Below, one piece after another: positions 24,403 to 25,914 of a stretch of 64,000 bases of DNA (within the stretch, counting starts at the first letter, position 1; the number at the start of each line of letters is the position of its first letter). Under the pieces are notes generated by a model. That model worked only from the letters and a program-made list of their open reading frames with translations. It ran no database searches and was not told where the DNA came from. The position numbers were made by a program, and so were the translations under genes. Source of the stretch: Microcaecilia unicolor (taxonomy: Eukaryota); contig NC_044044.1 in the NCBI RefSeq assembly GCF_901765095.1, forward strand, positions 26,760,132-26,824,131, read 5' to 3'.

Positions 24403-25914
24403 ATGGATTCCTCTGGTACTGAGGTGGTTTCTGTGGGCAGATTTACTGTCATCCAGGTTGGCAGTGAGAACAGCTGGACCAGTGTCGTTTCTCTGTCTGG
24501 AAGCACCTGTAATAGTTCCATCTCTGGGCATTACCTAGAAACGATAGACTGTATACCCAACTGTTCTGTCCTGAACTGTGCCACCCCTCCTGTCCTCATC
24601 CAGAGGGATCTGGCTGTACTAGAGAGGACACATGAGGAAGAAATAAATACTACACTAGAAGCCATCAACAATAATGTGAATGCGTTTGGCAAAGCGTCTC
24701 CAGCAGATACACCTAACAGTCATGGCCAACCTCCAGCATATGAAAATTGCTTTAGTCAGACATTGACTTGTACACCCAACTGCAATCCATTGTTGTCAGA
24801 CTCAAAAGTTAACTGCAGTTGCCAAACTCTAGCCTGCTCCTCCATTGGTGACAGGCTGACTCCTATCAGTTCTTCCATCGGGTCAACTCCTACCTGCCCT
24901 TTCACCAATAATGGGCCGACTCCTAACTGTCTCTCCAGTAGTGATGAGTTGGCTCCTACCTGTCCCTCCACCAGTGCTTGGCCGACTCCAACTTGCCCCT
25001 CCACCAGTCATAGGCTAACTCCTACCTGCTCCTCCGCCAGCGATAGACCAACTTCTCTCAGCTCCTTCACAAGTGATGGCCACTCCTTCACTAGTGACGT
25101 GCTGACACCTACCTGTTCATTCACCAGTGATGGACTGGCTCCTAACTGCTCCTTCGCCAGTGATGGGCCTACTCCTACCTGCACCAGTGGTGAGATGGCT
25201 CCTATCTGCTCTTTCACCAGAGATAGACTGGATCAATCCTCTGCCTCTGCCAGTGATGGGCCATCTCCTACCTGTTCTTTCACCACTGATGGGATGTCTC
25301 TAGCCAGCTGCTCCACCAGAGATGAGCCAGCCCCAGCCTTTGCCTTGACCAGTGATAGGTTGGCTCCAACCTGTTCGTTCACTAGTGATGGCCAGGCTTC
25401 AGTCTGCTCCTTCATCGGAAATGGGTTGGCACCATCCTACACCTCCACCATTGATGGACTGGCTCCAGCTTGTTCCTGCACCAGTGATGGTTTGGCTCCA
25501 GCCTATTTTTCCAGCACTAGCAACGGGCCTGTGCCAGTTTACCTGTCTGCCTATGAGTACCCAATAATGGAAGTCCAGACAGAAGAAGTTCATGAAGGCC
25601 TGGATCACCTGAACGATTCGATACATACCTTGAGTGATGGACTCTATATGCGTTCCAGCATCTCCACCAGGGAAGAGGAGTTGGACAGCTGCAGAGGGGA
25701 GCTAGTACGAGAAAGCACAGTAGGGAGAGAGTCGGTTTCTCTCAGCAGTGGGACCTGCACCGGTGCTTACACCCTGTCTTCCACGAAGGGGACAGCATAC
25801 ATTTATGACACTTTGGACACTACACCACACTTTGAATTCTACACCAACACATTTGTGCCAGGCAAGTTGAGACGCAACCGGCCCTCATTGGATGCCCTTC
25901 GTAATGCATTGGTG
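24403..25914 (+). CDS. SLC12A3: SLC12A3-like exon 1 (504 codons): N-terminal cytoplasmic domain with a large internal repeat expansion ([18 protein letters not shown]...RNALV)
   Basis: ATG at 24403 (ORF-track frame 24367..25932) and donor GTG|gtaagt at 25915. The start carries a GRFTV (RFxV) motif and the end carries [21 protein letters not shown], which resembles the NCC regulatory segment TFGYNTIDVVPTYEHYAN. About 15 tandem 11-aa units of the [11 protein letters not shown] type lie between them. Confidence 0.8.

Follow-up and report, generated by a model that had tools for sequence, protein, structure and literature searches.

Introduction

Sodium-dependent cotransporters of the SLC12 family are activated by SPAK/OSR1, which dock on an RFxV motif and then phosphorylate nearby threonines of the N-terminus, a domain that is cytoplasmic in this family. 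Long low-complexity N-termini are familiar among SLC12 proteins, i.e., in NKCC1, where roughly 70-130 residues separate the docking motif from the threonines, and in-frame minisatellites in disordered protein tails are common. Here we analyze a stretch of 64,000 nucleotides (nt) from the caecilian Microcaecilia unicolor (RefSeq assembly GCF_901765095.1, contig NC_044044.1, positions 26,760,132 to 26,824,131 of the forward strand), referred to as the window, which encodes an SLC12 cotransporter of the Na-Cl (NCC) branch. The first coding exon of this gene contains a tandem array of 11-residue units between the docking motif and the segment homologous to the phospho-regulatory region of NCC. Comparison with other amphibians suggests that this exon is probably translated as one piece and that the array forms part of a long tether between docking site and target threonine.

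A second NCC paralogue of amphibians and squamates has been named NCC3 (PMC4301019). Two papers citing Motoshima et al. 2023 equate NCC3 with slc12a10/NCC2/NCC-beta and describe it as lost in birds and most mammals (PMC11381001, PMC11145369). NCC-beta/SLC12A10 is reportedly thiazide-insensitive and apparently electrogenic, and the extended SPAK/OSR1 docking motif is given as (S/G/V)RFX(V/I)XX(V/I/T/S)XX (PMC11381001). No description of the array was found in the searchable literature, the cover of which does not extend to the primary paper of Motoshima et al. 2023; the protein is already predicted in RefSeq.

Results

A first coding exon of 504 codons in an NCC-type gene

The first coding exon (24403-25914, + strand) extends over 1512 nt from an ATG to the donor GTG/gtaagt (the slash marks a splice junction). 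Its 504 codons, ending in ...GCATTGGTG/gtaagt, are free of stops, whereas each of the five remaining frames has 13-42, and its non-repetitive flanks alone contain no in-frame stop versus 2-10 in other frames. Intron 1 (25915-26344) terminates in ...ctccacag/ and exon 2 begins at 26345 in phase 0, in agreement with the original prediction of an exon that is open throughout and spliced in frame. Exons 2-26 (26345-41743, + strand) encode the transmembrane core and the C-terminal domain, with the stop codon occupying the last positions, and every intron is of the GT-AG type. The assembled model of 26 exons predicts a protein of 1431 amino acids (aa), the size that had been expected, and is 99% identical to the RefSeq model for M. 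unicolor (P0001, 1438 aa), the first 504 residues being identical. The two models differ solely at the junction of exons 16 and 17, where P0001 requires a GC-AG intron of 80 nt (34346-34425). If a canonical GT-AG intron is placed here instead (34313-34412, donor ACG/GTGAGT), the product is nearer to the proteins of the caecilians Geotrypetes seraphini (YSEKSLDSEGH) and Rhinatrema bivittatum (DPEKGLESEGH).

Pfam identifies AA_permease_N (aa 465-506; 1e-9), AA_permease (4e-119), and SLC12 (5e-129) in the protein, and no Pfam family matches aa 1-464. In a search of the PDB, residues 466-1438 align to residues 56-1021 of human NCC (E = 0) with 1516 bits, compared with 1124 bits for NKCC1 and about 336 bits for the KCCs. 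The gene is an SLC12 cotransporter of the NCC branch, as the original prediction had claimed.

An acceptor-like sequence, ttttttttcag/, lies 5' of the start codon and may mark the exon boundary, in which case 24362-24402 (+ strand) would be the probable untranslated start of the exon. Between this site and 24403 there is no ATG, and the nearest in-frame stop upstream is at 24331. The ATG at 24403 itself stands in a moderate Kozak context, with C at -3 and G at +4. In Rhinatrema, acceptor-like tttttcccag is found about 30 nt upstream of the ATG; since such a site lies 30-40 nt upstream in both species, a non-coding exon probably precedes the first coding exon. A C-rich/CT tract at 24382-24402, consisting of 3.5 copies of CCTCCC, adjoins the Microcaecilia ATG; Rhinatrema has no such tract there.

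The repeat array in Microcaecilia

The array is genuine, a coding minisatellite that keeps the frame within a regulatory tail predicted to be disordered. It comprises about 22 degenerate 33-base-pair (bp), i.e., 11-aa, units at 24835-25539 (aa 145-379, + strand). Segmentation of the protein against a consensus gives 22 units, 15 of which are exactly 11 aa long, so that the earlier count of about 15 x 11 aa at 24830-25540 was right for the clean units. Tandem Repeats Finder detects period-33 arrays at 24884-25053 and 25083-25182, and a gapless repeat finder places 14 copies in register over 24867-25509 with 60-74% identity. Successive copies are spaced by 33 nt except for spacings of 87 and 93 nt, all multiples of three, just as expected for a first coding exon enlarged by in-frame 33-bp units. 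A hidden Markov model (HMM) of the unit reports 20 copies in the array, 15 of them significant. The array consists of 20.9% Ser, 14.0% Thr, 11.5% Pro, and 6.8% Cys, lacks Lys, and carries a negative net charge. Among units within one species, the ratio of non-synonymous to synonymous differences (pN/pS) is 0.62 in Microcaecilia and 0.60 in Rhinatrema.

At the nucleotide level, most units at 24854-25352 finish in a pyrimidine tract followed by CAG (e.g., tcctacctgtccctccaccag/TG) and thus resemble 3' splice sites; the scores of these unit ends equal or exceed that of the weakest genuine acceptor in this gene.

The array in other caecilians and its possible origin

In Rhinatrema bivittatum, the homologous open reading frame (ORF) of 598 codons (L001:8474-10267; LR584402.1) has the same N-terminal start as in Microcaecilia, contains about 30 units, and ends at the donor GTG/GTGAGT (...LRNALV/GTGAGT). 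Its coding frame has no stops versus 14-45 in each other frame. Tandem Repeats Finder reports 24.8 copies of period 33 together with a 132-bp higher-order repeat (6.1 copies, 87% matches); this higher-order repeat indicates recent unequal exchange. The RefSeq model for Rhinatrema (P0002, 1021 aa) begins at an internal Met downstream of the array and probably lacks the 509 N-terminal residues of the Rhinatrema protein. In Geotrypetes seraphini (P0003), exon 1 encodes 400 residues with about 14 units, each of which has its own counterpart in Microcaecilia, with an identity of 71% over the whole exon. All three sequenced caecilians therefore possess the array, with 14, 22, and 30 units. The lineage-specific insertion that had been postulated holds in this sense for caecilians and not for M. 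unicolor alone. Its site is less particular, the N-terminal extension itself being common to frogs and newt. Repeat number does differ among related species, which alignment of orthologues had been proposed to reveal.

Where the last caecilian units stand, frogs carry SSGSDELSSGY-TSTTDGLALEV, and the last caecilian unit aligns with SSGSDELSSGY. An HMM built from caecilian units matches a single weak copy there, YTSTTDGLA, with an independent E-value of 0.002 in two frogs and of 0.075-0.15 in three others. Such similarity makes it most likely that the array arose at this very site out of a coding motif already present; the higher-order repeat of Rhinatrema shows that it has since expanded and contracted independently. 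The unit Cys is replaced by Tyr in 17 of 27 Rhinatrema units. A Cys-specific function such as palmitoylation or metal binding was set aside for this reason.

When the 504-aa exon was compared by HMMER with 1.84 billion representative sequences, no relative of the array was found outside NCC N-termini, caecilian proteins being hidden inside NCC clusters in that collection. In the same search, N-terminal fragments of frog and fish NCCs matched the C flank, and the other matches were long proteins with 21-28% identity, one of a sea urchin and one of a snail among them, which we read as compositional. A word-index protein search with the N-terminal exon, or with its flanks plus exon 2, gave no match and is uninformative on rarity, since P0001, which is present in the database, contains these sequences exactly. 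Weak matches to the exon-1 query were also obtained with an unrelated minisatellite at the Rhinatrema locus (L001:23363-24431, - strand). It is rich in Ser, Thr, Pro, and Ala, translates to ...CSTTPAPLSNASPDALIHAL..., and lies inside the gene span 10001-26231 on the opposite strand; these matches are again read as compositional.

Docking motif, threonine segment, and the distance between them

The SPAK/OSR1 docking motif is situated at 24436-24465 (aa 12-21, + strand; RFTV at aa 13-16, nt 24439-24450), fits the extended consensus, and is conserved in the three caecilians and in most frogs. At the other end of the exon, the NCC-homologous phospho-regulatory segment (25792-25914, + strand) coincides with Pfam AA_permease_N, the alignment with human NCC starting at aa 466, which corresponds to human residue 56, and the homologous core segment is found at aa 464-480. 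Both an RFxV motif near the N-terminus and this segment at the C-terminal end of the exon had been reported as retained, and both are. T470 (nt 25810-25812) is the counterpart of human T60 and does not vary among the amphibian paralogues, and T483 aligns with human S73. In strict register, human T55 stands against Ala465, with a Thr at 464 (nt 25792-25794); in frogs this position is occupied by Gln. T464 is possibly equivalent to T55 if a one-residue indel is allowed.

The number of residues between the docking Arg and the T60 equivalent forms a graded series, as does the length of the N-terminus preceding the conserved VRFGW. NCC1 of rabbit and Ambystoma has 136-140 residues before VRFGW and a docking distance of 41-48 residues (rabbit 41), and for the turtle paralogue the respective values are 136 and 50. 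Polypterus and Polyodon paralogues follow with 172-176 residues before VRFGW and a distance of 79-83, frogs with 237-299 and 143-196, and the newt with 444 and 353. In caecilians, 446-644 residues precede VRFGW and 357-551 separate the docking Arg from the T60 equivalent (457 in Microcaecilia).

Xenopus tropicalis deviates from the other frogs in its gene structure. A 161-nt AT-rich GT-AG intron (L002:10091-10251; ...TPYR/gtaagt ... ttatag/NDGDLE) directly follows the RFTV segment. Exon 1 encodes 190 aa versus 230-245 in other frogs, and the intron sits where these have about 40-55 extra residues. It could be a case of intron gain or of intronisation of decayed coding sequence.

Is the exon translated as a whole?

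There is strong comparative evidence that the whole exon would be present in mature messenger RNA (mRNA) and translated from the ATG at 24403, because the frame is open in two species, its indels are in frame, and conservation sets in at the ATG. Every register shift and every difference in length is divisible by three, and the frame is also open in the Geotrypetes model. Between Microcaecilia and Rhinatrema, the first 48 coding nt (24403-24450 versus L001:8474-8521) are identical at 47 of 48 positions, synonymous sites included, while there is little conservation just 5' of the ATG. Synonymous divergence (dS) between the two species is 0.41-0.65 for the exon-1 flanks and 0.55 for exons 2-26. 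The ratio of non-synonymous to synonymous divergence (dN/dS) amounts to 0.69 for the N flank, 0.35 for the C flank, and 0.126 for the core (exons 2-26). When neutral evolution was simulated with substitutions only, at the p-distance of 0.253 that was observed, an open frame survived across the flanks in 1% of runs and across the whole exon in 0.02%; inclusion of indels would lower these figures further.

Several points weigh against this reading. Searches for exact matches to P0001, to P0003, and to the two window ORFs that read through yielded no transcript-derived or independent contig. Fragments of frog sequences derived from Logan (P0122 and P0124) read through into intron 1 and were therefore taken as genomic contigs, not as complementary DNA. 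The RefSeq models are computational, and the Rhinatrema one starts internally, downstream of the array. At the amino acid level the N flank is near-neutral (dN/dS 0.69), and about 10% of neutral simulations leave this flank open by chance when it is considered by itself. Acceptor-like sequences, each a pyrimidine tract with CAG, occur in most units, and there is one decent internal donor at 25190. The real 161-nt GT-AG intron of X. tropicalis just after the RFTV segment means that splicing inside this domain has arisen at least once. The predominance of Tyr over the unit Cys in Rhinatrema speaks against a chemistry specific to Cys, and the spacer or tether mechanism is a proposal.

The original prediction had itself considered that the repeats might mark a cryptic intron. 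In such a case, some or all mature mRNAs would lack the array, a part of it, or more of the exon than the array, and the long protein would be minor or non-existent. A splice-site scan, using rough position weights calibrated on the 25 real introns of the gene, provides some ground for this. At 19 internal AG sites the score is at least that of the weakest real acceptor, most units ending in ...ctcc(t)tcaccag/TGA, the donor at 25190 (GTG/GTGAGA) scores near the median of real donors, and ten in-frame GT..AG pairs exceed the threshold set by the weakest real sites; the homologous N-terminal region of X. tropicalis does contain such an intron. However, none of the ten candidate pairs removes the array alone, the long ones (e.g., 24464-25861) also deleting the predicted helix described below and the Thr segment, and the donor at 25190 belongs to a species-specific unit. 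Stop-free and frameshift-free stretches of 504 and 598 codons in two lineages, together with pN/pS values of about 0.6, are not expected of an intron, and RefSeq keeps the exon whole. With the frame open in these two species and in Geotrypetes, indels in frame, and no good pair removing just the array, we regard splicing within the exon as unlikely.

A start of transcription or translation past the array, for example at Met389 or Met416, would leave the upstream frame outside the protein. The first residue of P0002 (MLSSMPTREG...) is the equivalent of Met416 in the window protein, and the 24403 ATG has only its moderate Kozak context. Yet the start and the docking motif are near-identical in the three caecilians, the motif is kept in most frogs and basal fishes, and nucleotide conservation sets in exactly at the 24403 ATG. 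The shorter protein would lose its sole RFx[VI] motif, and the upstream ORF is uninterrupted in every species examined, all of which makes a downstream start very improbable. That unit number or frame derives from mis-assembled repeats seems less credible still: tandem arrays are liable to collapse or expansion and no independent contig was found for M. unicolor, but the units are just 60-74% identical to each other and hence easy to assemble uniquely, the 14 Geotrypetes units have their one-to-one partners in Microcaecilia, and the independent Rhinatrema assembly presents the same architecture. Translation of exon 1 as one piece from 24403 is thus the reading that we retain.

Structure, topology, and modification of the N-terminal domain

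AlphaFold2, run with an alignment of 10 sequences, gives a mean predicted local distance difference test (pLDDT) score of 38 and places helices only at residues 393-411 and 494-503. Values of pLDDT are below 50 across aa 1-387, and the array has no predicted secondary structure. It is predicted to lack a stable fold and to be intrinsically disordered. A folded beta-solenoid-like repeat was considered and is unsupported, as AlphaFold shows no secondary structure in the array. The first of the helices, with pLDDT values of about 64-69 that no other part of the extension attains, belongs to an amphibian-conserved motif at 25582-25650 (aa 394-416, + strand). This motif, E-E-V-x-E-A-L-x-H-L-N-Q-S-I-x-A-F-S-x-G-L-x-M, is located just after the repeat region in all amphibian paralogues, and its residues L403, N404, S406, I407, G413, and M416 are invariant in caecilians, newt, and frogs.

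The N-terminal sequence contains no evident signal peptide. Given the established cytoplasmic location of this domain, phosphorylation or modification of Ser/Thr with O-linked N-acetylglucosamine (O-GlcNAc) is possible and mucin glycosylation is not; array Ser/Thr sites could therefore be phosphorylated or O-GlcNAc-modified. Mucin-type O-glycosylation as well as N-glycosylation of the array were rejected on the same grounds, and the idea that the repeats create O-glycosylation-like sites of the mucin type is implausible for a cytoplasmic tail without an evident signal peptide.

The gene belongs to a second NCC paralogue

In a neighbour-joining tree based on 868 ungapped columns, the window protein and the "SLC12A3-like" proteins of amphibians and reptiles form one clade with 100% bootstrap support, separate from NCC1 of salamanders, reptiles, mammals, shark, and basal fishes. 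The tree is unrooted and has no outgroup, the "like" proteins of basal fishes are not resolved with the tetrapod clade, and no teleost slc12a10 is included. Lissotriton has members of both clades in the tree, NCC1 (P0116) and an "SLC12A3-like" protein (P0005). For Ambystoma, NCC1 (P0048) is in the tree and the "like" protein (P0007) is in the hit list only.

The genomic neighbourhood is informative as well. Upstream of the cotransporter lies a KLHL33-like gene (2073-6554, - strand; Pfam BTB_KLHL33, BACK, and Kelch), in which separate BTB ORFs are seen at 4571-5512 (BTB_KLHL33 plus BACK) and 5934-6554 (BTB), with a Kelch-repeat exon at 2073-2633. Downstream, ORFs at 43823-46111 (- strand) with Pfam Exo_endo_phos represent an APEX1-like gene, followed by ORF fragments with an approximate span of 47490-53550 (+ strand) which we take to be OSGEP-like; a Pfam scan of the ORF 47490-48059 among them identified no family. 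The loci of Rhinatrema (L001) and X. tropicalis (L002) have the same APEX1 neighbour and a TsaD-domain gene at the OSGEP position. In human, KLHL33, APEX1, and OSGEP reside together on 14q11, and the SLC12A3 locus is on 16q13.

An assignment of the window gene as SLC12A3 (NCC1) orthologue was rejected in view of the separate "SLC12A3-like" clade (100% bootstrap) and the KLHL33/APEX1/OSGEP neighbourhood. By tree and synteny, the gene is assigned to a second NCC paralogue of the NCC2/slc12a10 type ("NCC3" of amphibians and squamates). Its putative orthology to teleost slc12a10 rests on the secondary citations given above. For the comparisons made here, human NCC is a paralogous yardstick.

Other repeats in the window

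An interspersed repeat with the core TTTCCCACTCATGGCAGGCTCAATGCGGC occurs in 5 copies in the window versus 0 expected by chance, at 24261-24289, 880-908 (- strand), 54987-55015, 55619-55647, and 56151-56179, one of these copies finishing about 110 nt 5' of the ATG at 24403. A 20-residue string recurs in the translations of many ORFs of the window and may belong to the same repeat family. One family of 30-bp minisatellites is present at 40118-40507, 55321-55584, and 55998-56116 with 13.4, 9.1, and 4 copies, respectively, and in opposite orientations; the array at 40118-40507 is located inside intron 23 of the cotransporter gene.

Discussion

We consider it likely that exon 1 of this NCC2 gene is translated as one piece and that an 11-residue unit was amplified into a disordered tether between docking site and threonine. 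According to this proposal, the Ser/Thr/Pro-rich unit would have been amplified within the N-terminal extension common to all amphibian NCC2 proteins, just N-terminal of the conserved helix, most likely by replication slippage or unequal crossing-over, giving rise to 14-30 units in different caecilians. The product would be a disordered, acidic, Ser/Thr-rich tether of about 350-550 residues, with the docking motif (GRFTV, aa 12-16) at one end and, at the other, the segment whose phospho-acceptor T470 activates the transporter. The tail might thus serve as a flexible regulatory spacer and as a phospho-acceptor region. If a kinase acts in cis on a random coil, an increase of the distance from 41 to 457 residues would lower its effective concentration by (457/41)^1.5, i.e., about 30-40 fold. 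A consequence might be a weaker or slower coupling to SPAK, or a shift to trans phosphorylation of the partner subunit or of a neighbouring transporter. Selection would act mainly on the open frame and on composition, and not on exact sequence or unit number.

Alternatively, the array might constitute a multivalent module in which [ST]-S-[DE]-G-L-A-P is repeated 14-30 times, its precursor being a motif that occurs a single time in frog NCC2. If so, it could operate as a graded phospho-rheostat or as a docking platform for WNK-SPAK assemblies or membrane clustering, and unit number would tune NaCl uptake among caecilian lineages. We hold such a module to be rather unlikely.

For the disordered tether, the spacing is the aspect of broadest interest. 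Docking motif and Thr segment are both strongly constrained in caecilians, yet they are 357-551 residues apart, with frogs and newt being intermediate (143-353). This natural length series might be employed as a test of cis versus trans docking, of the effect of tether length on activation, and of the role of the amphibian-specific helix. Annotation would also benefit: RefSeq calls this gene "SLC12A3" and so assigns it to the wrong paralogue, the Rhinatrema model is very probably cut short at its N-terminus, and the Microcaecilia model has an odd GC-AG intron at exons 16/17. Beyond the spacing series and the annotation, the array is an ordinary in-frame minisatellite in a disordered tail.

Compared with known systems, the caecilian array resembles other coding minisatellites, such as prion octarepeats, involucrin, and mucin repeats of variable number. 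It shares with them a unit length that is a multiple of three, a unit number that varies among species, higher-order repeats from unequal exchange, and a frame that is kept under weak sequence constraint. In contrast to these, it belongs to an ion transporter and separates a kinase docking site from the target residues within the cytoplasmic regulatory tail. NKCC1 (SLC12A2) likewise possesses a long, disordered, low-complexity cytoplasmic N-terminus with RFxV well upstream of the phospho-Thr cluster, and in the PDB alignment its homologous segment starts at residue 213 versus residue 56 in NCC. However, its extension is shorter and contains no regular tandem array. With human and other mammalian NCCs (SLC12A3), the caecilian protein has in common the 26-exon structure, 66-68% identity in the core, an RFx[VI] near the N-terminus, Thr residues equivalent to T60 and S73, and a first coding exon that ends at the same place (human ...RPTLADLHSFL). 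It differs from them in being a paralogue and in its docking-Thr distance, which is about 30-41 residues in mammals (PMC11381001 and our own measurement) versus 457 in Microcaecilia. The closest relative is NCC2/SLC12A10, with which it shares the clade in the tree and, in caecilian and frog, the APEX1/OSGEP neighbourhood. Relative to NCC2 of other animals, the extra length of the caecilian protein is made up by the tandem 11-aa array.

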